Shown piece by piece: positions 8,095-37,053 of a stretch of DNA of 64,000 bases. The DNA comes from Candidatus Poribacteria bacterium (GTDB lineage Bacteria > Poribacteria > WGA-4E > PCPOR2b): positions 4,064,001 through 4,128,000 of the forward strand of contig OZ242351.1 in the NCBI GenBank assembly GCA_965208675.1, written 5' to 3'. Below the pieces are notes generated by a model that worked only from the letters and a program-made list of their open reading frames with translations, was not told where the DNA came from and searched no databases. Each line of letters begins with the position of its first letter. Position 1 is the first letter of the stretch. The translations under genes and the position numbers were made by a program.

Positions 8095-9213
8095 TTAAGC
8101 ATCACGCTTTTCGTTCTGAATTTGTTGTGCAGCCTCTAACAACGCGGCAGCTAGAAACTGGGGATTAACCTCATCCTTTCCGCGGAATGTCCTTACTTTC
8201 TCGCCGCGCACCTTAAGTACTGCGAGTTCTTTACCGCCTAAGTGAATTCCAGCTTCTGCATTACGCGTCTCTCCGGGGCCATTGACTTCACATCCCATGA
8301 CCGCAACCGGAATCTTGATCCCGTGAGTTTCTAATAACGCCTCTGCAGCAGCGACTATCCCTTCATAATCCGCGAGTGGATCGCCTCTTCCACAAAACGG
8401 GCACGAAACAACATCCAAAATATTATCCGCTAATCCCAATGTGCGAAGTAACTCCTTCGCCGTTAGAACTTCTTCGACGGGGTCGCCCGTTATCGAAATT
8501 CGAATTGTATCGCCAATACCCTCCAATAACAGCGTGCCGATGCCGAGCGTGGATTTGACATGTGCGCGGCGAGGCGTTCCAGCTTCTGTCACACCGAGAT
8601 GCAGTGGATACTCCACCCTTCCGGAGAGCAGCCGGTTCGCCTTTATCATTCTTCGTGGATCACTCGATTTAACGGAAATAGCGATATTCGTAAAACCGTG
8701 GTCTTCGCAAATTTTAACGTGCCGCATCGCGCTTTCGACAAGTGCTTCTGCTGTAGGCGAGGGATATTTGTCAAGCAGGTCTTTTTCCAACGATCCTTCG
8801 TTGACTCCAATGCGGATTGGGATATGCGCGGCATTCGCTGCTGAGAGCACTTGGGCGATTCGCGTTTCATTTCCGATGTTCCCAGGATTTATTCGAACTT
8901 TGGCAACATTCGCGTCAACAGCCGCGAGGGCGTACCTATAGTTGAAGTGAATATCTGCAACAATCGGTACAGAAGCGCGTTTGACGATTGTGGAGAGTGC
9001 GTTGGCATCTCTCTCTTCAGGAATCGCGACTCGCACAATTTGCGCCCCGGCTTCCACACACCGTTCGACTTGGCGTGAGGTAGCGTCTCTGTCATACGTC
9101 AGGGTAGTCGTCATCGTTTGTATCGAAATCGGATTCCCGTTACCGATTAATACGTCCCCAACATGTACTTGCCGCGTGGGTTTTCGATTGCCAATTGGTG
9201 ATAAATCTTCCAT
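8095..9213 (-). CDS. ispG: HMBPP synthase (GcpE)
   Basis: VADIHF, RINPGN, RIGVNEGSL, HLGVTEAG, GDTIRIS, CPFCGR…GCEVNGPGE. Confidence 0.96.
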   Translation of the reverse strand: MEDLSPIGNRKPTRQVHVGDVLIGNGNPISIQTMTTTLTYDRDATSRQVERCVEAGAQIVRVAIPEERDANALSTIVKRASVPIVADIHFNYRYALAAVDANVAKVRINPGNIGNETRIAQVLSAANAAHIPIRIGVNEGSLEKDLLDKYPSPTAEALVESAMRHVKICEDHGFTNIAISVKSSDPRRMIKANRLLSGRVEYPLHLGVTEAGTPRRAHVKSTLGIGTLLLEGIGDTIRISITGDPVEEVLTAKELLRTLGLADNILDVVSCPFCGRGDPLADYEGIVAAAEALLETHGIKIPVAVMGCEVNGPGETRNAEAGIHLGGKELAVLKVRGEKVRTFRGKDEVNPQFLAAALLEAAQQIQNEKRDA

Positions 9214-24500: not shown

Positions 24501-27500
24501 TCAATTCTTATCCTCCCAGTTCGTCGCATCCGCATCAAACTCAAGTTCTTCGGGGACATCTCCGATTTCCTCAAGGTCAACATCTAGGCACAAACTCTGA
24601 AGCTCCTTGACTAGCACGTTAAAGGACTCCGGTGTGCCGGGTGCCGGGGCATTTTCGCCCTTGACAATGGCCTCATATATCTTACTTCTACCGGCGACAT
24701 CATCCGATTTGATGGTCAACAACTCTTGGAGGGTGTAGGCAGCGCCATAAGCTTCCAAAGCCCAAACTTCCATCTCGCCAAATCGTTGTCCGCCTTGTTG
24801 AGCTTTTCCACCCAGTGGTTGCTGCGTCACCAAGGAGTAAGGTCCAGTGCTGCGGGCATGAATCTTATCGTCTACCAAGTGGTTCAACTTGAGAATGTAG
24901 GCATAGCCGACAGTGGTTTCCTGCTCGAAATGAGAACCGGTTCGACCGTCGAAGAGTTTTGCTTTTCCGGTTGGCGGGAGTCCTGCATCATTCAGCAATT
25001 CCTGTATCTCGTTTTCTGTGGCGCCGTCGAAAACAGGCGTTGCGATGTATAACCCTAATTTTTCAACCGCCCATCCGAGATGTGTTTCGAGAATCTGTCC
25101 GACATTCATGCGCGAGGGCACGCCCAATGGGTTTAACACAATCTCGACAGGGGTGCCATCTTCCAAATAAGGCATATCTTCCTGGGGAAGAATTTTTGCG
25201 ACTACCCCCTTGTTTCCATGCCGCCCAGCTATCTTATCGCCAACAGCAATTTTTCGCCGATTGGCAACATAGACCTTGACAAGTTTAATTACGCCCGGCT
25301 TGAGTTCGTCACCTTTGCGAATCTTCTCAATCTTCGCCTCCTTTTCCGTTGTTAAGGCTTCGACTCGACCTTTCGCCAAATAACGAATGCGGGCAATGCG
25401 TTCCATGGCTTCAGAATCCGTCACTTGAAAATCCTCAAGAGGAACACCGCTGTCAATAATTTCTTCAATAACCACATCCCCACGCTGCGCCACAATCTCT
25501 TCTTCCATATCTTCTGCTGCGGATTTCCGAAGTTCGTTAGCAAGCGTCCCGCCCAATAGTGCATTTCGAATCTCTGCATGTTCTCGCTGTTGAATTAGCG
25601 CACATTTGGACTCCCACTCTTTTTCCACTTCTTTCTCTTTGGCGGCTTCCCGAAGCTGTGCTTGACGATCCTTGTCCCTATCTCTTCGAGAGAAGACTCT
25701 GACATCAATAACTACGCCTTCAACACCCGTCCTGGCATACGTCGAGGCGTCGCGCACTTCTCCCACTTTTTCTCCGAAGATCGCGCGCAGCAGTTTCTCT
25801 TCAGGCCCGAGATCGCTTTCCCCTTTCGGAGTTACCTTCCCGACAAGTATACTGCCTTGTCTGACAATCGATCCGACTCGGATAATCCCCTCGTCGTCAA
25901 GCTGGCTAAGCGCTTCTTCAGGGAGGTTAGGAATATCACGGGTGATTTCTTCTCGCCCCATCTTTGTATCTCGTGCTTCAACTTCAAACTCATCAATGTG
26001 AATAGAGGTAAAAGTATCATCAGTCACCAGTGATTCACTGATTAAAATGGCGTCTTCAAAGTTATAGCCTTCCCACGGCATAAAGGCTACGAGTACATTG
26101 CTGCCTAGTGCAAGTTCGCCGTTATCAGTGGCTGTGCCGTCCGCGATTACCTGCCTGGCATTGACCTTTTCGCCGACATCAACACAGGGACGTTGATGGA
26201 TGCATGTCCCGCTGTTGGATCGCCTAAAGTTCATTAGGCGGTAAACATCGTAGCCCATTTCCGAAAAGGATTGTTCCCCGCCGTCAACATTAAAGGCATC
26301 TTCCGTGCGGATGATAATCTCAGATGCAGAAACGCTTTCAACAGTCCCGTCTCGCTTTGCCAAAACCACTGCGCCCGAATCTCGGGCAGCTTTGGATTCC
26401 ATGCCAGTCCCGATTCGGGGCGCTTCGGGGCTAATCAGAGGCACAGCTTGGCGCTGCATGTTACTCCCCATTAACGCCCGGTTCGCATCGTCATGTTCAA
26501 GGAATGGAATGAGCGCCGCAGATACCCCCACAATCTGCTTGGGGGACACATCTATGTAATCAATTTCTTTGGGAGATTTCCGAGGAAAATCCCCCTGATA
26601 TCGGGTGACCAACCCATCCCCAACCAGTTTGCCGCGTTTATCAAGCAATGTATTTGCTTGTGCAATCGCAAAATCATCCTCTTTGTCCGCTGTCAGATAG
26701 TCAATCTGATCCGTGGCTCGTCCTTTGACCACCTTGCGGTACGGAGTTTCCAGAAAACCGTAGGCGTTTACCCGTGCGTATGTGCTCAGCGAGACAATCA
26801 AGCCGACGGATGGCCCTTCTGGAGTCTCGATCGGACACACCCTGCCGTAGTGAGTGCGGTGAACATCGCGCACCTCAAAAGTTGCACGTTCACGGTGCAA
26901 TCCCCCCGGGCCAAGCGCGCTGAGTCGACGTTTGTGGGTCAATTCGTCTAGCGGGTTAGTCTGCTGCATAAATTGGGAGAGTTGGCTGGATCCAAAGAAA
27001 TCTTTAATTGCCGCCGCCAATGGTTTGGGGTTAATGAGATCCGTCGCGGTGACGTTTTCAAGCTCTTGGATTGTCATGCGCTCACGGGTTGCCCGCGTGA
27101 CACGCATTATACCCATCCGCACCTGGTTTTGCAGCAACTCCCCGACCGCTCGCACGCGTCGATTACCCAGGTGATCGATATCGTCGGTTACTCCATCGCC
27201 GTTTTGGAGGTCAATCAGGTATTTGAGCGCTGCTGCAATGTCTTCTTTACGCAGGGTACGCACGCCTTCATCAACCATTCCGTTGCCATTATGGTAAATG
27301 GGAAGTCCACCCAGTTTTTCGTTGAGCTTGTAACGTCCGACTCGAGATAGGTCATATCGGACTGGATCGAAGACCATCTTTTCAAAACGGTTGCGTGCGC
27401 TCTCTATTGTCGGCGGATCGCCCGGCTGGAGTTTGCGGAAAATTTCCACCAAAGCCTGATCTTGAATATGCCCAGCTTTATAATCAGATTGGCGGTCACG

Positions 27501-28418
27501 TTCTAGGGTATTCCTTAACAATCGGATTTCTTCCGCATCCTTTTCGTCCAATACTTCAACCTTATCGACTCCCGATTCTATGCATGCAGTCAGGCAATCA
27601 TTCGTCAGCTCTGTGTTGGCTTCCAACAGCACCTCTCCGGTATCCGGATTGACTACCGGGCTGGCTGTGATTCGACTTTCTAGCGCCCCAATCGTAGCGG
27701 CGTCATTCACAATTTCGTAGCTATTGACATTCGCAAATAGCTTGAGAATCTGCTCATCGGTTTCCCAACCGAGTGCGCGGAGCAGCACGGTAATGAGCAT
27801 TTTTTTGCGCCGAGCCAAACGGACATGAATCAAATCTTTGATGTCGCATTCAAACTCTATCCACTCGCCGCGATACGGGATAATCCTTGCCGTGAACAGT
27901 TTTTGCCCGCTGGTATGGGTATCTTCGCTAAAGGTTGCTCCAGGCGAACGGTGAAGTTGGCTGACAATCACCCGTTCTGCACCGTTGATTACGAATGTGC
28001 CATTTTCCGTCATTAACGGAAGTTCACCCATATAGACTTCGTTTTCTTTGATGTCAATCGTGTTCTTGTCACCAGTGTCTTTATCCTGCTCTCGAAAAAC
28101 CAAACGGACGCGAACCTTGAGCGGCACCGCGTAGGTAAATCCGCGAGATTGACATTCGTTAATATCGTATTTGGGGGAACTAAGGGTGTAATTAACATAT
28201 TCGAGGCTGGAAGTTTCGCTAAAATCCATAATTGGGAAAATTTCGCTGAAGATGGCTTGCAACCCAATATCTTCACGTTCATCGGGAGCGACGTTTCGCT
28301 GTAGGAACTTGTCGTAGGAGAACTTTTGGACCTCAATCAGGTCGGGGAGATTCATAATCTCCGGGATTTTTGCGAAGGGACGTCGGTCACGCTTACCAAA
28401 TTCGATGCGGTGGGGCAT
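24501..28418 (-). CDS. rpoB: RNA polymerase beta subunit
   Basis: [44 protein letters not shown]. Confidence 0.99.
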
Positions 28419-28491
28419 ACTTTCACCTTTATACTTAGAAGGTTAAAGGGGGATGGCGCAATGTTCAAATTGTAAACCACGCAAACCTAAT

Positions 28492-28520
28492 ATTATACAG
28501 AAAGATTTTTCCAATGTCAA
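28492..28520 (-). promoter_or_regulatory. Perfect-consensus sigma-70 promoter for rpoBC
   Basis: Minus strand TTGACA-17 nt-TATAAT, ending 73 nt upstream of the rpoB ATG. Confidence 0.85.
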
Positions 28521-28700
28521 GTTCTCTACTTAAATTTCTACACTTAAAACGAAAAAAGGTTGCCTTAAGTATAAAAAATTTTGTGCAAACTACTGATTGA
28601 TAGCTTTTTTGTCGCCGTGCGGTGGTATCAATACTAGGGTTGGGCATGACCGGATTGGGGATGCCACTGATCAACACGAACATGTTCTATCTGATTAGAC

Positions 28701-28896
28701 GTAAATCGTTGTGTTTGGCTTTAGAGTAGCGTGGTAAGACGGTGCGCGGGTAAGTAGATTAACGAACGCATTTGGCGGATTTTCAGGAACTTCAAGGGTA
28801 TTCCGCAGATAATTTTTCGATCATTTCCTTTTCATTGGCTAGGCCTTCATCTGAATGTACAGCGGTTGTTAGACAGTAAATCGCCGCCTCGCTGCA
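28701..28896. repeat. Direct repeat copy 1 (~196 bp)
   Basis: Hand alignment to 35413-35607 gives about 22 differences including one 1-nt indel (~89% identity). Confidence 0.93.
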
Positions 28897-28945
28897 AATA
28901 TGTGTAAAATGCTTGCTCCTTTTCTTCAAATTTATCGTGACGACC

Positions 28946-31900
28946 TCAATCTTCACTTTCATAGAGGTTCTCATAATAGAATACTACTGTTTTTATATCC
29001 TGCCAGTGTTTCTCCTTAAATTGAATGCGTATGGTAGAGTCGTTAATTTCTAACAACACTTCGGGGTCATCTGAGTCCCGCAGCACTCTGTACAGCGTTT
29101 TCCGAGCCTTCTTACGGCGCTTTACGTATTCCTTGTACCTTGCCGCACACTCCGGACACAGCGCCAAATATTGAGCTTCGTGTTCTTTCGGGAAATACTT
29201 TTTATTCAGAGCTTCCACAGCCTCAAAGTAATCTTCATGAGAGTTATACTTTTTGAACGGCATGGCCTGTCTACACATTTGGCATTCTATTTCGTTTATT
29301 CCCGTGGAATACTCTCCTATCAAGCGAGTTCTAGGGTCAATGCTGGCACGGGAAATTCGAATACGTCGCGCGCGGTCCTCATATCGACTTTCCTCGGCAT
29401 GGCTAAGACCGATAATGAGTAGTTCTTTCCGCCGCTCTTTGCGGCGGATATTGTCAACAATGCCTTCTAATTCGTCAAGCGATTTTCCTTGTGCCCTAAA
29501 TTCATTAGCAATTTCTGCCATCTTCTCAGCTTCGTCAGCGGAGTCGAACCCTATTTCCTGAGCACGTTCATTTAGCAGAATATATTCCGTCTCTTGTTCT
29601 CTAGCAGTCTTGCCAAATTCAACTGCTTCAAGCCACGCTTGACCCTTATCGTATTGAAAGCCTTCAAGCAGGAGTTCAACTGATGCATTACATGGACGCT
29701 CAAAAGAGGTAGAGTCCCCATTTTTCTGTGGAACCCATTTTACCTTTCTTAACTCATGCACAAGGCTACTATGTCCCCCTCTGTGCCGATGGGATTGGTT
29801 ACATTGGTACACTGCTTTCAGGTAGCTTTCTGGCAGGGAACACATCGTTAACCAGATCAACCTTGATTTTTCAGTCGTAGGATTTTCAATTAAAATCTTG
29901 CATTCCGATATTGTGTAATCTTTATTTGTCCCGGTATCCGACCTCCATTGCCCTAGAGCATTTTCAACAAGATAGTGGTATTCGGGATGTTGCCGGGGAA
30001 TCCGTTGCTCGGTAGGTTGCAGTTTAGTTTGGGTCCCAACAGCTTCCGCGAATTTCGCGAACCTTGCTAGGTCTACACCGGAGGTTTTGTATTTCAATGA
30101 AAGGGGCCACTTTCTGTCCTCCGAAACCTCGTCGATAGCTTCAAAATACGATTTCAAACCGGTGTCAAGATAGGGAGAATCCAGAAAGGTTTTTTTTGGA
30201 GATGCCCACATTCTTTTGTTGTCCGAATCCTTATCAATTTGAAGAATAGGGTAAGATGTGAACAACTTCGCTTTAGCTGAATCCGCTTCTACGAGTTTGA
30301 TGAATCTCTCCAAGTCGGCCTCTCGAGGTTTGATTAACCCACTTGTGTTTCGCGTGTATCGCTGATTCAAAATCACCTTAATCCGTTCGACTTCGTCAAC
30401 TTCACGAACGCCGATAGTTTCAAGAAACTCGTGGGCTTTTTTCTGCTGATCTTTATTTTGTCCGGATGAATAAACTCCTTTAGCAACGTAGAAAAAATAT
30501 TCCTCGTGCCCATCTTCCTCTTGAATCTGGAGCTGGGTTTCCTCCTCAAGGGCTACGACATCATTGAACAAATCTACTTCAGGCTCCGCGTCACCGTTTA
30601 GAAAGTAACATTCGCGTCCGGATCTGTGGCGACCATCGCTGCAGCGAACAATGCGAAGTGTTTCCAAACTGGTGCGATATTGTTGTCCTTCGATGTAATT
30701 CCACCTTATAGAGGAAATAAAATCATCAAGCAAGGCATAGAATCTTTGGTGCCAAATCTCCGATTTTTCCTTAAGCCATTCCATTACTAGGTTAGACTGA
30801 AGCTCTAGCACCCTAATCAAGTCTTCAATTTTCCACTCGCGGATATGCAACATGGAGAGGAAATCTTCGATTCTTTTATTTCGTCGCTGAGCATTGGTAT
30901 CTTGGACAAATCGTCCACTTCTTTCATCTCGCTTTTGCGTTAGTTGTGATGTATTGGCAACCCATAGCGGTGTAGCTTTGTCTTTTCCGAGAAGTATGGC
31001 TAGATCTTCATCCTGGATCAAACTGGATAATCCTCTTCCGCTTCGATCTTGGTAGAGTTTCGACGCGGCCTCATAATCGCCCCGTTTCGTTGGTGTTATT
31101 TTTTCATTCTGAAATTCATGAACTATGGTATCACGGAGGGGGGTATAGAACTCAGGTATTACATCCTCCTGATTTGGAAGAACCGACAGAAACTCGATTG
31201 TCAGAAAATTTCTTCCTCTCAGATACGGGAGTGACTCCTTCAGCAATTCGCATGTTAACTTCATGAGATGGAGATTAAAATCATCAGTTATTGATATTGT
31301 TTCTCTGGCCGGGTTTGTGCGGTAAGGGCCATTTAGCATGAACTTTAAGCCCGTTTTTTCTTTTGTCTTGAAGAGTACGTAGAGTGAATCATCTTCTATT
31401 GGCGAGAGTCGTTCCTGTGCATCGATCATAAAGGCAATCTCTACGGCTTTATACGGTTGATTCTCCCATTTCGGAACTTTCGATAACGCTACGTATTGAT
31501 TTTCCTGTTTTCCATCTGTAATTGTAGTGAATCGTACATTAGCATCCATCTCGTCTTCGCGTCGGTAACACGCGGAGTGATTTTCTATTTCCCAACGTAT
31601 TTCCTGAATATTCCGCGTGAACAGCAATGTGTTCAGGTCGAGTGTAGTGAGACATTCCGATATTTGCGTGTATGCTTCTTCACGCCGTACTAGTTTTTCG
31701 ACAAAATCCGGTTGTTCGGATTCGTGATTGAAGGGAAGAACAATGCGAGTTCGGGAACGTGAAAAACCATCGGGATAGGGATATTCTCTGACACGGTAAA
31801 GACCGTCTATTTGGAAGTGTTCATTGCCTGAAATGATAGTTGGTATTGCTGTGAATGCGAAAACCGACTTGAAGCCTACACCGAAACGCCCTGTTTTTAC

Positions 31901-32170
31901 GAGAACGTCTCGACTCGTGCTTTTACCGAAGTAAGTGATTGCTTCAACATTTTTCTCGGTAAAAGGTTCTCCATTGTGTTCAATCACAATGGCATTTTTG
32001 GAAAGTTTGAAGCATATTATCGTCGCCCCGTAGTCATCTGCATTCTGTAGAATCTCGTACACAAAGTGTGTAGAATCTGAGTACATAGAGACCTGTGTTT
32101 TCCGAGAGGCGGTATCTTCCCCCAATTGTTTTTCGTTATGTGCTGTTATTGCTTTGTAATCACTCGGAAT
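28946..32170 (-). CDS. Sacsin-like GHKL/HSP90-type ATPase with C-terminal Zn/HNH-like domain
   Basis: YEILQNADD, HNGEPF, GRFGVGFKSVF (GHKL boxes); C-terminal CQMC…YFEAVE…LALCPEC. The frame is open 15 codons upstream of TTG 32125 to an ATT placed 8 nt after AAGGAG. Confidence 0.8.
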   Translation of the reverse strand: MPSDYKAITAHNEKQLGEDTASRKTQVSMYSDSTHFVYEILQNADDYGATIICFKLSKNAIVIEHNGEPFTEKNVEAITYFGKSTSRDVLVKTGRFGVGFKSVFAFTAIPTIISGNEHFQIDGLYRVREYPYPDGFSRSRTRIVLPFNHESEQPDFVEKLVRREEAYTQISECLTTLDLNTLLFTRNIQEIRWEIENHSACYRREDEMDANVRFTTITDGKQENQYVALSKVPKWENQPYKAVEIAFMIDAQERLSPIEDDSLYVLFKTKEKTGLKFMLNGPYRTNPARETISITDDFNLHLMKLTCELLKESLPYLRGRNFLTIEFLSVLPNQEDVIPEFYTPLRDTIVHEFQNEKITPTKRGDYEAASKLYQDRSGRGLSSLIQDEDLAILLGKDKATPLWVANTSQLTQKRDERSGRFVQDTNAQRRNKRIEDFLSMLHIREWKIEDLIRVLELQSNLVMEWLKEKSEIWHQRFYALLDDFISSIRWNYIEGQQYRTSLETLRIVRCSDGRHRSGRECYFLNGDAEPEVDLFNDVVALEEETQLQIQEEDGHEEYFFYVAKGVYSSGQNKDQQKKAHEFLETIGVREVDEVERIKVILNQRYTRNTSGLIKPREADLERFIKLVEADSAKAKLFTSYPILQIDKDSDNKRMWASPKKTFLDSPYLDTGLKSYFEAIDEVSEDRKWPLSLKYKTSGVDLARFAKFAEAVGTQTKLQPTEQRIPRQHPEYHYLVENALGQWRSDTGTNKDYTISECKILIENPTTEKSRLIWLTMCSLPESYLKAVYQCNQSHRHRGGHSSLVHELRKVKWVPQKNGDSTSFERPCNASVELLLEGFQYDKGQAWLEAVEFGKTAREQETEYILLNERAQEIGFDSADEAEKMAEIANEFRAQGKSLDELEGIVDNIRRKERRKELLIIGLSHAEESRYEDRARRIRISRASIDPRTRLIGEYSTGINEIECQMCRQAMPFKKYNSHEDYFEAVEALNKKYFPKEHEAQYLALCPECAARYKEYVKRRKKARKTLYRVLRDSDDPEVLLEINDSTIRIQFKEKHWQDIKTVVFYYENLYESED

Positions 32171-32236
32171 GTGATCATCTCCTTGCAGGTGTCATAGACG
32201 TATTCATTGCACTTCTACAAATAAAAATCTAAATTT

Positions 32237-35200
32237 TCAGGCGTTTCTTTGCACTTCCAAAATACCATTCGCTACTGGCTCCGCGGTAATGTCGGCTTTC
32301 TCCATTGCAGATTCTAGCTCCCGAATTCGTCGATTGTAATTTGCCTTAGCTCTGTCAATCAGGGATTGCTTCATCCGACGGATGTTTTCCGAGGTCGCCT
32401 GTTGTAGTTGTTCACGTAACAGCGCAACTTGCGCCTGATGACTCGTTGATAGACTTTCTTTGCGGTAAGCAGCAAGTTCTTGAGTGCGTTGTCGATGGTC
32501 ATCGCGCGCCGCCGTCCATAGTTGCTGGTGCAAAGCTTCTAATACATCCTGCATTGGAGGTCGATTGGTTTCCTGCACATCACTATCCACCGCTTCCTCT
32601 AGTAATCGGCTAAGATGCGGCGTCAACTCGCGGGATGACGCAATCGGCTTCAGAATCATGTCTTCCTTGACACCGTGGAACTGCCACTGGTAAATTGCAA
32701 AATCGTAGCGTCCCGCGGGAACATCGTCGGTTTTCACTTTAAGAGTAGCGACGACGTTGTGTTCCTTCTCTAGCGTTAGTGCCGCTTGTTTCACTAAGGG
32801 ATGTATTGGCATAATGAATGCGGCTTTGGGATGTTGAGACGCGCCTTCTGCCGCAAACGCAACGGGTAGATGCTGATCGTCGCCCTTTAGCCAATTCTCC
32901 CACTCTCTAAAAACCGGACTCCTTTCTCTCGGAAGTTGCTGCAAATCGCTCAATAACGTACCTCTCGCGATTTCCGATAGCCGCAGCGTTTTCAGCGACC
33001 TTTCACCAAGAATGTATTCGCGCTCAGGCTCCAATCTCGATTTAAGATAGAGTGTGACGAGTCGCTGTATTGATTCTGGGGACAACCAAAAACTAGAAGC
33101 ATCTTTAACCTCTCTTTCTATTCTGTTATCAGGGAATCGGATGCCGAATAGTTCCAACTGCTGATTCTCCAGCCGCTCTTTTTCCTGTATCAGCCGAATT
33201 TGGTTGTCTGCCAACTGCTGCAACTTGGTTCCTCGTTCTGCCTCGGTCAATGTGTAATTCTCGGCGATTTCCCGGAGTTTCGTCGTGATTTCACCGAGGA
33301 TTTCTTCGCTGCCTCCCAGCGCGCTTTCGAACACACCGATCCGGAGCAGGCAGCGTTCATAGATGTCGGCATCGACGGTCCCGGGCGTAATCAGATTGAT
33401 AATTGTAACGTGATGGCTTTTTTGCCCTTTCCTATCAATCCGGCCTATCCGTTGTTCGATTTTCATCGGGTTCCACGGCAGGTCATAGTTGACAATACAG
33501 TCGCAGAACTGGTAATCCAATCCTTCGCACCCGATTTCTGAAAACAGCATGATGTCAAGAGCGTTGGTTTCTTCTTTCGACTTCTCAAAACGATCTCTCA
33601 GTTCAATTCGTTCGTCATCCGGTGTCCCGCCGTGCACCATTCCTACACGAAAACCATCCGACCCCAAGTGTTTGTAAAGATAGGCAAGCGTATGACGGAA
33701 ACTGCTAAACACCATCAACTTATTATTGGGGCGGTTTTGCCTTTCGCGTATGATTTGTCGAAGTGCTTCTAGTTTGCGATCTGGCGAGGTTATGGTTCGC
33801 ACTTTTTCATGAATTACTTCAATCTGATCTTGTATACGATTCACGGTATCTTCTTGTGGTATGGATTCCGTAGAATCCGCTTCTCCCCAAGCAAGCTCGT
33901 CGAGATGGCGGCTCAGAATCTCTTCAAGCAGTGGTTCAAGTCCGTATAGACAACTCGCGAGTTGTCGGCGGATTGTTGTCATAAGGAATTTGACATGCTG
34001 ATCGCCGTGCAACCGCCGGAATATCTCCGCTTGCGTCTCAAGCACCATTTCATGGATCTGTTCTTGGGCATCGGTTAATTCAACCTCTACCGTCTGCGGG
34101 CGGCGTATTGTGAACTCACCGATATCGCGGCGGCGAGTTCTGTTGATTATCCCTGAAAAAGTATGTAGCGCCTCTATGTCTGTGATAAGTTGGACGCGTT
34201 CGGCGTGGGTGACAGATCTGCCTGCAATTTTACTTAGAATTAGCTTAAATTCGGGATTATCGTTGAGGATGGATTGCCCCCACGGGGTTTCTGCGGCTTG
34301 CTTCAGGGCTAGCTTTGCCTGACGCAACCATCCCTGTTCCTGCGAGCGTGCGGCGTCAATCGATTGGTTGATAAATAGGTTTGGCTCCGCCATGTGATTG
34401 AAGGCTTCCTCATCTCGAATCAAATCCGGACGAAGTACGTTGAGCAGCACAAACAGGTCATGGCTGCCGAGTTGGATTGGGGTAGCGGTAAGAAAGACAG
34501 CGGCTTCCGCATGGTCACAGAAAAACCGGACCGCATCGTGATTGGCGGTGTTCTGGTTTCGGATGTGGTGCGCCTCGTCCACAATCACTAGATCGAAACG
34601 CGGCGGCGGGTCTAAATCCAATAACCCTTTTGTCCGCCGTCGTCTTTGATTCCCGTCACGACCATTAAGAAGCTCTTTGTCGAACAACGAATAAGGAAGA
34701 ATGACCTTATGATATTGCTCTGGCCACTCCCCATCCAAATTTGTCTCCTTGATGCAATGTTGCAGGAGTCGCCCGTCAAGATGAGTGAAATTTTCGTCAA
34801 ACCGTTTCATCTCCCTAAGCCACTTTTGCTCGGTAACTAGGGGACGAGGACAAATAATGAGAACAGATTTGATGTCGCGACGGGCTTGCAATTCGCGCAG
34901 AATCAACCCGGCTTCAATGGTTTTTCCGACGCCGACGCTGTCGGCGATTAGCAATCTGGGTCGGTCGGAACGGATGAATCTCAGGACAGGTCGGTATTGG
35001 TAGGGAACGAAGTCTACACGCGCCGCGTTAAGCGAATACAAAGTCGACAAACCGGGATAGCGAATCTGTAAGGCAGTCAGGTAGGCGTGAAACTGGTCGC
35101 ATGTAAGAGGTTGCGGGGCGTCGTCACGCTCGGTTTCGACTTGCAACTGAGATGCATAAAAGGTCTGAACGTCCCTGTCAACAAAAACGCCAATCCTGTC

Positions 35201-35314
35201 TTCTGGCGTTCCAGGCGTCACACTAACAACTGCACCGCGAACGGAAGGATCTGATCTCAAGATGACAATCTGACCCGGTGAGAACTCTTGCGAAGGATTT
35301 GGTCTGACATCCAT
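32237..35314 (-). CDS. SNF2/RapA-like superfamily 2 helicase
   Basis: LIADSVGVGKT, DEAH, LTATP, GCEGLDYQ, YDLPWNPMKIEQRIGRIDR. GAGG SD. Confidence 0.93.
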   Translation of the reverse strand: MDVRPNPSQEFSPGQIVILRSDPSVRGAVVSVTPGTPEDRIGVFVDRDVQTFYASQLQVETERDDAPQPLTCDQFHAYLTALQIRYPGLSTLYSLNAARVDFVPYQYRPVLRFIRSDRPRLLIADSVGVGKTIEAGLILRELQARRDIKSVLIICPRPLVTEQKWLREMKRFDENFTHLDGRLLQHCIKETNLDGEWPEQYHKVILPYSLFDKELLNGRDGNQRRRRTKGLLDLDPPPRFDLVIVDEAHHIRNQNTANHDAVRFFCDHAEAAVFLTATPIQLGSHDLFVLLNVLRPDLIRDEEAFNHMAEPNLFINQSIDAARSQEQGWLRQAKLALKQAAETPWGQSILNDNPEFKLILSKIAGRSVTHAERVQLITDIEALHTFSGIINRTRRRDIGEFTIRRPQTVEVELTDAQEQIHEMVLETQAEIFRRLHGDQHVKFLMTTIRRQLASCLYGLEPLLEEILSRHLDELAWGEADSTESIPQEDTVNRIQDQIEVIHEKVRTITSPDRKLEALRQIIRERQNRPNNKLMVFSSFRHTLAYLYKHLGSDGFRVGMVHGGTPDDERIELRDRFEKSKEETNALDIMLFSEIGCEGLDYQFCDCIVNYDLPWNPMKIEQRIGRIDRKGQKSHHVTIINLITPGTVDADIYERCLLRIGVFESALGGSEEILGEITTKLREIAENYTLTEAERGTKLQQLADNQIRLIQEKERLENQQLELFGIRFPDNRIEREVKDASSFWLSPESIQRLVTLYLKSRLEPEREYILGERSLKTLRLSEIARGTLLSDLQQLPRERSPVFREWENWLKGDDQHLPVAFAAEGASQHPKAAFIMPIHPLVKQAALTLEKEHNVVATLKVKTDDVPAGRYDFAIYQWQFHGVKEDMILKPIASSRELTPHLSRLLEEAVDSDVQETNRPPMQDVLEALHQQLWTAARDDHRQRTQELAAYRKESLSTSHQAQVALLREQLQQATSENIRRMKQSLIDRAKANYNRRIRELESAMEKADITAEPVANGILEVQRNA

Positions 35315-35412
35315 GTTTTACCTCGTCGAAAGATATTAAAGATGGCGGGATAAGCTCGCTAATCACCGTATAAGGATTATCCGAGTAGGTAAATTCCTTC
35401 ATTTGACCTGAT

Positions 35413-35607
35413 GTAAATGGTTGTGTTTGGCTTCAGCGTGGGGTTGTAAGACGGTGCGCGGGTAAGTAGATTGACATACGCGTTTGGCGGATATTCAGTA
35501 ACTTCAAGGGTATTCCGCAGGTGATTTTTCGATTTTTTCCTTTTCATTGGCGAGGCCTTCATCTGAAGGTCAGCGGTTGATAGGCAGTTAATCGCCGCCT
35601 CGCTGCA
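35413..35607. repeat. Direct repeat copy 2 (~195 bp)
   Basis: Same orientation as 28701-28896; shares exact blocks such as GTAAGACGGTGCGCGGGTAAGTAGATT and AACTTCAAGGGTATTCCGCAG. Confidence 0.93.
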
Positions 35608-35678
35608 GGTCAGAGTACGATGTTTAGTATATCACAAAATTGCTGCGAATGGAAAAAATCAGTTTTATTCGCATTTAC

Positions 35679-35717
35679 TTGACACAGGGAAAAACTGTAT
35701 GATATATTATCATACAG
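35679..35717 (+). promoter_or_regulatory. Promoter with overlapping palindromic GntR/YtrA-type operator
   Basis: TTGACA (35679)-18 nt-TATATT with TGn. Perfect inverted repeat CTGTATGATA-tat-TATCATACAG (35695-35717) covers the -10. Confidence 0.8.
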
Positions 35718-35737
35718 ACCGCACAGATGAGGTGCCG

Positions 35738-36127
35738 ATGTTTTTCCGCATTGATTATAACAGCAGCCAGCCAATTTATCAGCAGGTGATTGAGCAGATT
35801 AAGCTCACCATTGTCAATGGCGGGTTAAAGCCCGGAGAGCGCATGCCCTCTATACGCGAGTTGGCGAAAACGTTGAAGATTAATCCAACTACCGCGGCGA
35901 AAATCTACAACGAGTTGGCGCACCAAGGGGTGCTCGTACTGCGTCAAGGCCAGGGGGCATTCGTCGCCCCAAAGGTGGTTTCGCTTGCGAGTGAAGAGAT
36001 TCAACGGATTGTTTCGGAATACGCGAAGAAAATGCTGGTGGAAGGGCTGCGGTTTGGATTGACACGCGAGGAGATTGACTTAATTATTGATGCGGAGTAT
36101 CAAAGTATCAAGAAAGGGGAGCAATGA
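35738..36127 (+). CDS. GntR family (YtrA subfamily) regulator
   Basis: PIYQQVIEQI…PGERMPSIRELA…INPTT…GQGAFV with a short C-terminal domain. Start at ATG 35738 after GAGGTG. Confidence 0.93.
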   Translation: MFFRIDYNSSQPIYQQVIEQIKLTIVNGGLKPGERMPSIRELAKTLKINPTTAAKIYNELAHQGVLVLRQGQGAFVAPKVVSLASEEIQRIVSEYAKKMLVEGLRFGLTREEIDLIIDAEYQSIKKGEQ

Positions 36128-37053
36128 GCGAGAACGTCATTCAAACACACAATCTCACAAAGGACTTCGAGCGCGAAAGAGCCGTGGATTCACTGAGTTT
36201 GACGGTGCCGCAGGGCTCGGTCTTTGGATTCTTGGGGGTCAACGGTGCCGGAAAAACAACGACGGTTCGGATGATAATGGGGCATCTGCATCCCACCAAA
36301 GGAGAGGTCGAGCTACTCGGTAAGAATCCGTGGAAACATACCGAAGTTGAACGGCGTCGTGTAGCTTACGTTTCAGACAACATGCACCTGCCGGGCTGGA
36401 TGACGCCGAAGCAGGCGATACGACTCAACGCGTCTCTTTATCCTAGCTGGGACGCCGCGCTCGCGGAGCGTCTACTTTTCGATCACGATTTGAATCGATG
36501 GAAAAAATACCGGTTGTTCTCGAAAGGCGAGAAACGGCGGCTCTGCCTGCTACTTGCAATTTGCCAGAACGCCGATGTCCTAATCCTTGACGAACCCGCG
36601 TCGGGGCTAGATGTGGTTGCACGGCACAAATTCTTAGATCTCATCCTTGATCGGGTTTACGATGGACGACGAACCGTTTTCCTATCGTCGCATCTGTTGA
36701 GCGACCTAGAACGAATCGTTGACAGGCTAGTGGTTATCCATCGCGGTCGATTGCATCTGTCGGGTACGCTTGATGATTTAAAAACGGAGGTCCGAGAAAT
36801 CCGCTTGCCGGACGCAATACCCCGTGAATCGCTTGATTGCCACTTCGAAATTTTACAATATGAGTCAAATGAACAAGGGACGGTAGTCATCGTCCGAAAC
36901 TTCGACGAAGCGCGTTTTCAAGCATTTTGCCAGCAATTCAATGTGGACGAAACCGCTCAAGTTAACGGTTTCAACCTGGAAGACCTGTTTGTGAGGCTCG
37001 TCGGCACAAAAGGGAACAGAAATCGTCTGAATCGCCAAAAGCGCAAATCATAA
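36124..37053 (+). CDS. ABC transporter ATP-binding protein (YtrB-like)
   Basis: GVNGAGKT, FSKGEKRR, ILDEP, SSH, LEDLF; ATGA overlap with gntR. Confidence 0.93.
   Translation: MSENVIQTHNLTKDFERERAVDSLSLTVPQGSVFGFLGVNGAGKTTTVRMIMGHLHPTKGEVELLGKNPWKHTEVERRRVAYVSDNMHLPGWMTPKQAIRLNASLYPSWDAALAERLLFDHDLNRWKKYRLFSKGEKRRLCLLLAICQNADVLILDEPASGLDVVARHKFLDLILDRVYDGRRTVFLSSHLLSDLERIVDRLVVIHRGRLHLSGTLDDLKTEVREIRLPDAIPRESLDCHFEILQYESNEQGTVVIVRNFDEARFQAFCQQFNVDETAQVNGFNLEDLFVRLVGTKGNRNRLNRQKRKS

Follow-up and report, generated by a model that had tools for sequence, protein, structure and literature searches.

What a two-gene cassette lying between two direct repeats does, and how it came to lie there, is the question raised by a 64,000-nucleotide stretch of a Candidatus Poribacteria genome (GCA_965208675.1, contig OZ242351.1, positions 4,064,001 to 4,128,000; hereafter the window, positions being counted from its first letter). 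Directly upstream of rpoB and rpoC, this stretch carries the genes of an SNF2 helicase/translocase (P0002) and of a sacsin-type GHKL ATPase (P0001). The two proteins, the repeats and the corresponding site in related genomes point to a Tiamat-like operon, SNF2 followed by GHKL, which most likely (with a probability of about two in three) constitutes an anti-phage or anti-mobile-DNA module seated inside a decayed methyltransferase gene. An initial description of the window, made from its letters without database searches (hereafter the original prediction), had proposed a self-contained helicase plus ATPase-nuclease defence module, gained or lost by recombination between the repeats.

Co-inheritance and architecture of the SNF2 and GHKL proteins

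The partners travel together. A survey of 41 related genomes recovered SNF2 homologs (E<=1e-30) in 11, and in 11/11 a sacsin-like gene was located directly downstream on the same strand, with at least one gene of the pair broken in five of these relatives (G001, G013, G028, G029, and G040). The pair occupies at least three different genomic contexts among the relatives, lying between a DUF1932 dehydrogenase and a DUF815 ATPase gene in one genus and after rtcB in another; in the relatives examined the SNF2 gene was never found beside rpoB outside the genus of the window, and no methylase gene adjoined the pair in any of the eight related cassette loci examined (8/8). Beyond these relatives, the GHKL family comprised 859 proteins at E<=0.001 among 7999 candidates scored. 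The homologs among the 120 matches listed were 44-100% identical and mostly full length, and the named ones among them were few and belonged to Candidatus Poribacteria. The best 80 genome loci with GHKL homology, taken from named genomes, were then compared across phyla. Full-length homology was found at 19 loci, all with sufficient upstream DNA, and 18 of them harbored an SNF2 gene just upstream; the single exception, L103, presents a row of another SNF2, Abi_C, N6_N4 Mod, ResIII, and GHKL genes, which includes a type III restriction-modification module. Partial homology was found at 61 loci, with an SNF2 gene just upstream in 10, none upstream in 38, and too little upstream DNA in 13. The full-length loci came from Poribacteria, Hydrogenedentota, Gemmatimonadota, Verrucomicrobiota, Cloacimonadota, Alpha- and Gammaproteobacteria, while the partial-homology loci with an upstream SNF2 gene added Binatia, Latescibacterota, one Lachnospiraceae genome, and one Mycolicibacterium. 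SNF2 and GHKL are a conserved, co-inherited, self-contained module, and the claim of such a co-occurring pair is borne out by the 11 relatives and by the 18 full-length loci across phyla.

Outside Poribacteria the SNF2 protein often carries an N-terminal Swt1-like HEPN or DUF2283 domain, and in two Verrucomicrobiota loci a YhcG PD-(D/E)xK gene stands between the SNF2 and GHKL genes. Two sphingomonad loci have the pair directly behind a type III Mod-Res pair, and in five loci a single SNF2 gene is followed by two GHKL genes. A single 1540-residue frame of a Binatia genome (L106:4335-8957) combines HEPN_Swt1, SNF2, Helicase_C, and the sacsin ATPase domain; the partners may be naturally fused here, or the locus may be truncated. 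Other neighbours include Abi_C, WYL, NERD-UvrD, DUF6079, AAA_14/DUF4143, transposases, and a resolvase. These restriction-modification, Abi_C, YhcG, and HEPN neighbours or fusions, the patchy distribution of the pair and the Tiamat match described below make up the defence context of the module, and from this context and from homology we infer its anti-phage function. In the sister genus, two genomes carry RiboL-PSP HEPN genes two genes upstream of the cassette (L025:15282-15887 and L027:14921-15412), one of them adjoining a ParA-like ATPase gene, which possibly form a small defence cluster.

The GHKL protein begins with an Hsp90/sacsin-type GHL ATPase (Pfam SACS, 2e-18; NCBIfam sacsin ATP-binding domain, 4.4e-24), as does Tiamat (TmtA), a single-gene anti-phage system. 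The PADLOC TmtA profile matched it at 3.4e-52 over residues 13-802, so that the N-terminal ATPase and a core of ~790 residues align with the window protein; the match runs through the part where the Tiamat core (DUF3684 region) would lie, and there Pfam reports no family. Across the GHKL alignment E24, N28, D31, and the glycine loop residues G79, G82, and G84 are invariant, as are C948, C951, C990, and E971 in the tail. The middle third evolves fastest, identity to the most distant congener (G003) being 80, 55, and 80% for the N-terminal, middle, and C-terminal parts, respectively. The ATG start of the homologs (MPSDYKAIT...) is replaced in the window by ATT at 32170-32168, with AAGGAG located 8 nt upstream; the gene call of the database begins 29 codons further in and yields 1046 residues. 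Some Poribacteria GHKL genes (L025:7185-11165 of G015, P0011, P0012, and L041:4115-7846) possess an N-terminal extension of ~250 residues with a weak Hfq/Sm-like match (Pfam Hfq, 4.4e-4), and in another genome a separate Hfq-domain gene lies upstream of the cassette (L030:18899-19504, 7.4e-7).

The Cys-rich tail had been compared to McrA-like HNH nucleases, and this assignment is upheld at the level of fold. The model predicted for the last 179 residues (pLDDT, the predicted local distance difference test, 86) had the HNH domains of TagI and EcoKMcrA as its top fold matches, with a VIA Z of 5.9 and a root-mean-square deviation of 3.4-3.5 over 94-99 residues, Z values that are modest on their own. 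Foldseek likewise placed the TagI/EcoKMcrA HNH domains first (E 0.013, probability 0.98), followed by the HNH domains of Cas9, Cap5, and PtuB, and a sequence profile of the tail retrieved EcoKMcrA as the only significant PDB match (E 1.5e-6). The tail is thus predicted to adopt the beta-beta-alpha-metal fold with a Cys4 zinc site common to EcoKMcrA and TagI; the N-terminal domain of those enzymes, which is a modified-base reader, is absent from the window protein. In the HMMER alignment to EcoKMcrA the four Cys residues are kept and EVHH has become EAVE, DN has become AQ, and CPNCH has become CPECA, i.e., Val-Glu stands in for the catalytic His-His, Gln for the Asn, and Ala for the last His; Glu971, which takes the place of a His, does not vary across the alignment of full-length proteins. 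Since the classical HNH catalytic residues are lost, the tail is an HNH fold lacking the classical active site, which probably binds DNA or cuts it non-canonically, and the label of ATPase-nuclease given in the original prediction is doubtful.

The SNF2 protein matched Pfam SNF2-rel_dom (6.5e-18) and Helicase_C (3.8e-20), with intact motifs GVGKT (Walker A), DEAHH, and QRIGRIDRKGQ (motif VI). Its best NCBIfam families were DrmD (312 bits, cut-off 610), RapA (172 bits, cut-off 576), and DpdE, and a single PADLOC DrmD profile aligned with it end to end (7.7e-111). Among solved structures the closest relative by sequence was RapA (5e-31, the next family at 1.7e-19). The model of the C-terminal 375 residues (pLDDT 79, predicted template modelling score 0.47) also led to RapA, which provided the top four Foldseek matches (E 9.5e-8 to 4e-6), and a wide VIA-align search with the same model returned only generic helical-hairpin matches. 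Pfam detected neither HEPN nor any other nuclease domain in the window SNF2 protein, and divergence of its C-terminal part compared with the class of its partner gave no clear covariation pattern. As judged from these matches and motifs, the protein most likely belongs to the RapA/DrmD clade and translocates along double-stranded DNA, driven by ATP.

The original prediction did not recognise the pair as a named system, and this has been overtaken by a preprint of October 2026 which, in its available part, lists Tiamat-like proteins with HNH-like tails and helicase neighbours; its type IV-A proteins and type IV-B helicase neighbourhood are among the closest known counterparts of the pair. In its Tiamat-like type IV an HNH-like fold without catalytic residues replaces the nuclease, and the type IV-B neighbourhood contains an adjacent helicase, often nuclease-fused, with Swi/Snf named among the superfamily 2 helicases (bioRxiv 10.64898/2026.09.30.754977). 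Methylases also occur beside the helicase-linked Tiamat genes, and type IV is presented there as a bioinformatic class only, without a phage test (bioRxiv 10.64898/2026.09.30.754977). The GHKL tail of the window has such an HNH-like fold lacking catalytic residues, and the adjacent SNF2 gene may correspond to type IV-B, here without a nuclease domain, its homologs elsewhere carrying HEPN_Swt1; the SNF2 family of the window was likened to type IV-B by the text description of the preprint only. The pair fits that text description of type IV and appears to be a further member of this recently catalogued class, with a putative anti-phage role. Helicase-partnered Tiamat-like pairs are widespread, and the locus offers a clean natural example of their minimal form, which lacks HEPN, methylase, and any obvious nuclease.

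Several described systems were considered and set aside. Tiamat proper was rejected, as the TmtA match stops at residue 802 and the last 179 residues fold as HNH, not as PD-(D/E)xK; the window GHKL protein is moreover shorter than Tiamat (1059 residues vs profile lengths of 1063-1782), lacks the PD-(D/E)xK domain (NOV_C/DUF3883), and is obligately paired with SNF2. DISARM class 1, suggested by DrmD being the best NCBIfam family, was rejected because the DrmD score remains below its cut-off and no drmA, drmB, drmC, or methylase gene is present at the locus; the only DUF1998 match in the genome is situated at 2.64 Mb, ~1.45 Mb from the window (4.06-4.13 Mb). Hma, a candidate or validated defence system, likewise combines an SNF2 helicase with an ATPase partner, and the PADLOC HmaA profile matched the window SNF2 protein at 4.1e-41. 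As far as the published descriptions of this system were available, HmaA is an SNF2 helicase with a DUF3883/NOV_C nuclease, HmaB a DUF1156 methylase, and HmaC a DUF499 AAA+ ATPase (PMC8565338, PMC11232893); Hma was rejected since neither window protein has a NOV_C, DUF1156, or DUF499 Pfam match and the ATPase is of the GHKL and not the AAA+ type. The available part of a 2013 HEPN survey describes a Swt1-like HEPN-SWI2/SNF2 fusion and does not mention a sacsin-like partner, and the NO VEIN preprint makes no mention of helicase, SNF2, HNH, operon, or neighbours.

Boundary repeats and variation at the site

Two large co-oriented genes, and nothing else, had been described between same-orientation repeats, and both the coordinates and the description are correct, the SNF2 and GHKL genes being the sole long open reading frames between them (Table 1). 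The repeats, put at ~196 bp and ~89% identity, share 88% over 199 bp by BLAST (E 1.5e-67, far beyond chance), or 86% over 170 nt plus 80% over 55 nt in ungapped comparison; they are spaced by 6711-6712 bp and occur in exactly two copies in the 4.89-Mb genome. In Rfam, the segment 28000-36200 (E<=1) matched nothing beyond a miRNA family below threshold, and the repeats are not a known RNA. In agreement with the earlier statement, neither cassette protein contains an integrase or transposase domain of the kind that marks an integrative or transposable element; a recombinase domain is likewise absent from the cassette.

The origin of the repeats was found in a related genus. In two congeners an open frame persists over the right repeat, with 107 codons (G003) and 99 codons, and a Pfam search of these 107- and 99-residue frames gave no match. 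A search with the rpoB-upstream DNA also matched a site far from rpoB in a related genus (G005), where an intact gene for a 321-residue N6_N4 DNA methyltransferase (L032:4624-5589; Pfam N6_N4_Mtase, 6e-40) adjoins the ortholog of the same gntR-ABC operon, with an insertion sequence between them. When this intact methyltransferase was used as a tblastn query, it matched the right copy of G003 (E 1.8e-28, codons 1-118), the right copy of G001 (3e-13), the right and left copies of the window (2e-7 and 7.5e-5, respectively), and the single copy of G002 (1.7e-4). The methylase identity of the repeats is thus derived from the intact ortholog alone, the Pfam search of the frames having given nothing. 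Both window copies have the same 30-codon internal deletion; the right remnant ends at the SNF2 start codon, and the left one starts 17 nt past the GHKL stop. Since every repeat copy is matched by the intact methyltransferase, the repeats are, on this homology, duplicated 5' fragments of a decayed, resident N6/N4 methyltransferase gene and not the termini of an element. The statement that no methylase is present therefore holds for intact genes and fails for the repeats, which are themselves methylase-gene remnants, and the locus illustrates how direct repeats on either side of cargo can stem from the duplication of part of a dead resident gene and need not be mobile-element ends.

Intact orthologs of the methylase, with 53-80% identity, are present in 14/41 related genomes; within the genus of the window the ortholog search detected a remnant only in G003, and in five other genomes the gene is not within ~6 kb of gntR or rpoB. 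Because G005 has the methylase at gntR without any SNF2 homolog, and because in genomes possessing both the methylase and the pair (G018, G021, and G029) the two are 0.2-2.3 Mb apart, the methylase is considered the native gntR neighbour and not cargo. The insertion sequence of G005 (L032:3396-4432, two transposase frames, between gntR and the intact methyltransferase) occupies the same intergenic spot as the cassette in the genus of the window, and this spot may be a recurrent insertion point. In the window genome as a whole (G000) the N6_N4 methyltransferase family was matched 17 times, with 14 matches exceeding the cut-off, and on this count the genome is very rich in DNA methylases.

Comparison within the genus revealed occupied, empty, and allele-swapped sites. 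The most distant congener (G003, ~80% DNA identity) is collinear with the window: rpoB, left stump, GHKL, SNF2, right stump, and gntR. G002 has an empty site consisting of rpoB, a 600-bp spacer with a single stump, and gntR, whose left flank matches the left flank of the window and whose right flank matches the right one; such a single-stump site is what recombination between the stump copies would leave behind on deleting the cassette. As G003, the most distant congener, shares the cassette and both stumps with the window at the corresponding site, a single loss is a more parsimonious account than three gains. The single-repeat empty site expected under the earlier idea of gain or loss by recombination between the repeats thus exists, and the idea has to be amended in that the repeats are not the termini of an element.

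In G001 the SNF2 gene is kept but broken (79-86% DNA identity to the window), DNA similarity is absent from ~28598 to 32237, that is, over the GHKL gene and the left repeat, and the GHKL protein is only ~30% identical to that of the window. A second case emerged from the assembled contigs of four metagenome runs. The contigs of run X6 are 99.5% identical over 27000-28729 (rpoB side) and 95% over 32245-36267 (SNF2 side), with unlike sequence over 28730-32244, where the GHKL gene is expected; in run X7 the depth is ~80 over the SNF2 gene and 0-5 over the GHKL gene. In G001 and in a near-identical metagenome strain the GHKL gene alone has been replaced. An empty or excised junction was sought in the same contigs, none of which bypasses the cassette. 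In one run a single contig connects 35456 back to 28748 (back 6709; depth 6, 44 nt on the short side), which could reflect an excised circle or a tandem copy, or equally the repeat of a related strain placed on the wrong copy, and it was not counted as evidence. Three local facts are new, namely that the repeats stem from a methylase stump, that an empty site exists, and that the GHKL allele alone has been replaced; occupied, empty, and swapped sites all occur within one genus.

Proposed mechanism and competing explanations

The GHKL protein is envisaged as an ATP-gated, N-terminally dimerising clamp with a fast-evolving, probably target-sensing middle and a C-terminal zinc McrA-type HNH fold. 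Its variable middle would sense foreign nucleic acid or a phage product, upon which the protein would close on ATP binding and hold the DNA via the zinc HNH-like domain, and the SNF2 motor would translocate to load, spread, or resolve the GHKL-DNA complex. This three-step proposal is drawn from the analogy with GHKL clamps and from the data on Bacillus cereus Tiamat, for which the available part of the preprint reports ATPase activity, single-stranded DNA cleavage, and weak nicking (bioRxiv 10.64898/2026.09.30.754977). Both proteins would thus act together on foreign DNA, a conserved motor presumably working for GHKL as the exchangeable part that confers specificity. Other lineages could leave the killing step to the fused HEPN, the inserted PD-(D/E)xK gene, or the type III Res; the minimal form may rely on a non-canonical HNH activity or on a block that does not involve nucleolysis. 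The pair appears well suited for studying the contribution of the helicase to Tiamat-type immunity and a possible role of the GHKL middle in setting specificity.

A number of observations weigh against this assignment. The effector step and the discrimination between self and non-self are left unexplained because no recognisable active nuclease, HEPN domain, or methylase is present, the minimal pair containing no mark for self DNA. In Poribacteria the flanks of the pair are housekeeping genes and not defence islands. With its ATT start, the GHKL copy of the window may be weakly translated or starting to decay. In a chimera test of the G002 stump both ends resemble the adjoining flanks, as expected, while the middle is of mixed character, a pattern that fits a deletion and an ancestral state alike. 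Finally, our literature search found no experimental test or phage assay of the pair or its close homologs, and in the available part of the preprint the sole experimental data concern the B. cereus Tiamat, with another C-terminal nuclease and no helicase partner (bioRxiv 10.64898/2026.09.30.754977).

Four other explanations were weighed. The first, which is unlikely, retains immunity and alters its mode: a single RapA-clade motor would serve interchangeable GHKL sensors in a form of cassette-exchange immunity without nuclease or methylation mark, blocking DNA-bound machines such as RNA polymerase without cutting. The GHKL swaps would then take place by homologous recombination anchored on the 3' end of the SNF2 gene and on the conserved flank, i.e., the methylase stump.

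It is also unlikely that the cassette is a decaying, functionless passenger, the repeats an incidental duplication, and the empty site of the congener ancestral. The ATT in place of the family's ATG in the GHKL gene, the frequent breakage (5/11 relatives), the ambiguous recombinant single-copy test, and the lack of a cassette-skipping contig in the four metagenome runs are all compatible with decay; both frames, however, are open for more than 1000 codons with all ATPase motifs intact, and the sharing of the cassette and both stumps by the most distant congener makes one loss preferable to three gains.

The notion that a three-gene, restriction-modification-like system of methylase, SNF2, and GHKL left the cassette as its remnant, the stumps being its own lost modification gene, draws on the methylase-derived sequence abutting both cassette ends, at the SNF2 start codon and 17 nt past the GHKL stop. 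It also draws on three proteobacterial loci (L103, L105, and L108) whose gene rows combine an N6_N4 methylase, a ResIII gene, and the pair, and on the methylases reported beside helicase-linked Tiamat genes in the available part of the preprint (bioRxiv 10.64898/2026.09.30.754977). Such a remnant is nevertheless improbable, as the related genus has an intact ortholog at the same gntR-ABC operon and lacks SNF2 homologs altogether, the three genomes that have both carry the methylase ortholog far from the pair, the methylase is beside the pair in 0/8 related cassette loci, and both stumps are 5' fragments, the 3' half being absent.

Slightly less probable still is a transcription accessory beside rpoBC, with SNF2 as a RapA-like RNA-polymerase recycling factor and GHKL as its chaperone-like partner: the cassette does lie directly upstream of rpoB-rpoC on the same strand, and its SNF2 protein is the best RapA-family match in the genome, with RapA (HepA) of Escherichia coli as its closest solved relative by sequence and by the fold of the region following the helicase, but it scores only 172 bits against the curated RapA cut-off of 576, lower than for DrmD, is GHKL-paired, dispensable and polymorphic (absent in one congener, broken in another), lies beside rpoB in the genus of the window only, and has homologs that are HEPN-fused and adjoin restriction-modification genes.

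Organization of the locus and its flanks

The features of the locus are compiled in Table 1. The GC content is 0.43-0.45 over the GHKL gene and 0.47-0.52 in the flanks. Since the perfect sigma-70 site lies between the left repeat and rpoB, the cassette is located upstream of rpoB's own promoter-like site; from the GHKL stop to rpoB no terminator-like site was predicted on the minus strand. The TG-extended promoter-like site next to the right remnant may be the former methylase promoter, now positioned to drive the SNF2-GHKL operon.

Table 1. Features of the SNF2-GHKL cassette and its surroundings (positions in the window)
Feature	Position	Strand	Remarks
rpoB	24501-28418	-	downstream of cassette; rpoC after rpoB
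Perfect sigma-70 consensus TTGACA-17-TATAAT (12/12)	28492-28520	-	between left repeat and rpoB, ~75 nt upstream of rpoB start
Left repeat, 5' methyltransferase pseudogene fragment	28689-28914	-	~codons 1-112; 30-codon internal deletion
GHKL ATPase gene (P0001, sacsin-type, Tiamat-like)	28946-32125	-	1059 residues, counted from TTG
C-terminal Cys4 zinc, McrA-like HNH-fold domain of GHKL protein (predicted)	28949-29353	-	~residues 925-1059
GHKL (Bergerat-fold) ATPase module	31226-32092	-	~residues 12-300
SNF2 helicase/translocase gene (P0002), RapA/DrmD/DpdE clade	32237-35314	-	1025 residues
Right methyltransferase remnant	35315-35640	-	~codons 1-135; same internal deletion; includes right repeat (35401-35625)
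Promoter-like site TTTCCA-18-TATACT, TG-extended	35626-35655	-	just 5' of right remnant; consensus scan only
gntR	35699-36127	+	divergent, upstream of cassette

In the window of this genome, the rplKAJL genes do not precede rpoB. At 35695-35717, overlapping the annotated gntR start, a perfect palindrome with 10-bp arms (CTGTATGATA-ATA-TATCATACAG) was observed, which is probably a GntR operator. At the position of the palindrome, G001 (L023, ~8480-8540) has short tandem repeats, translated as ...YRPYRPYR.../...HTDHTDHTD....

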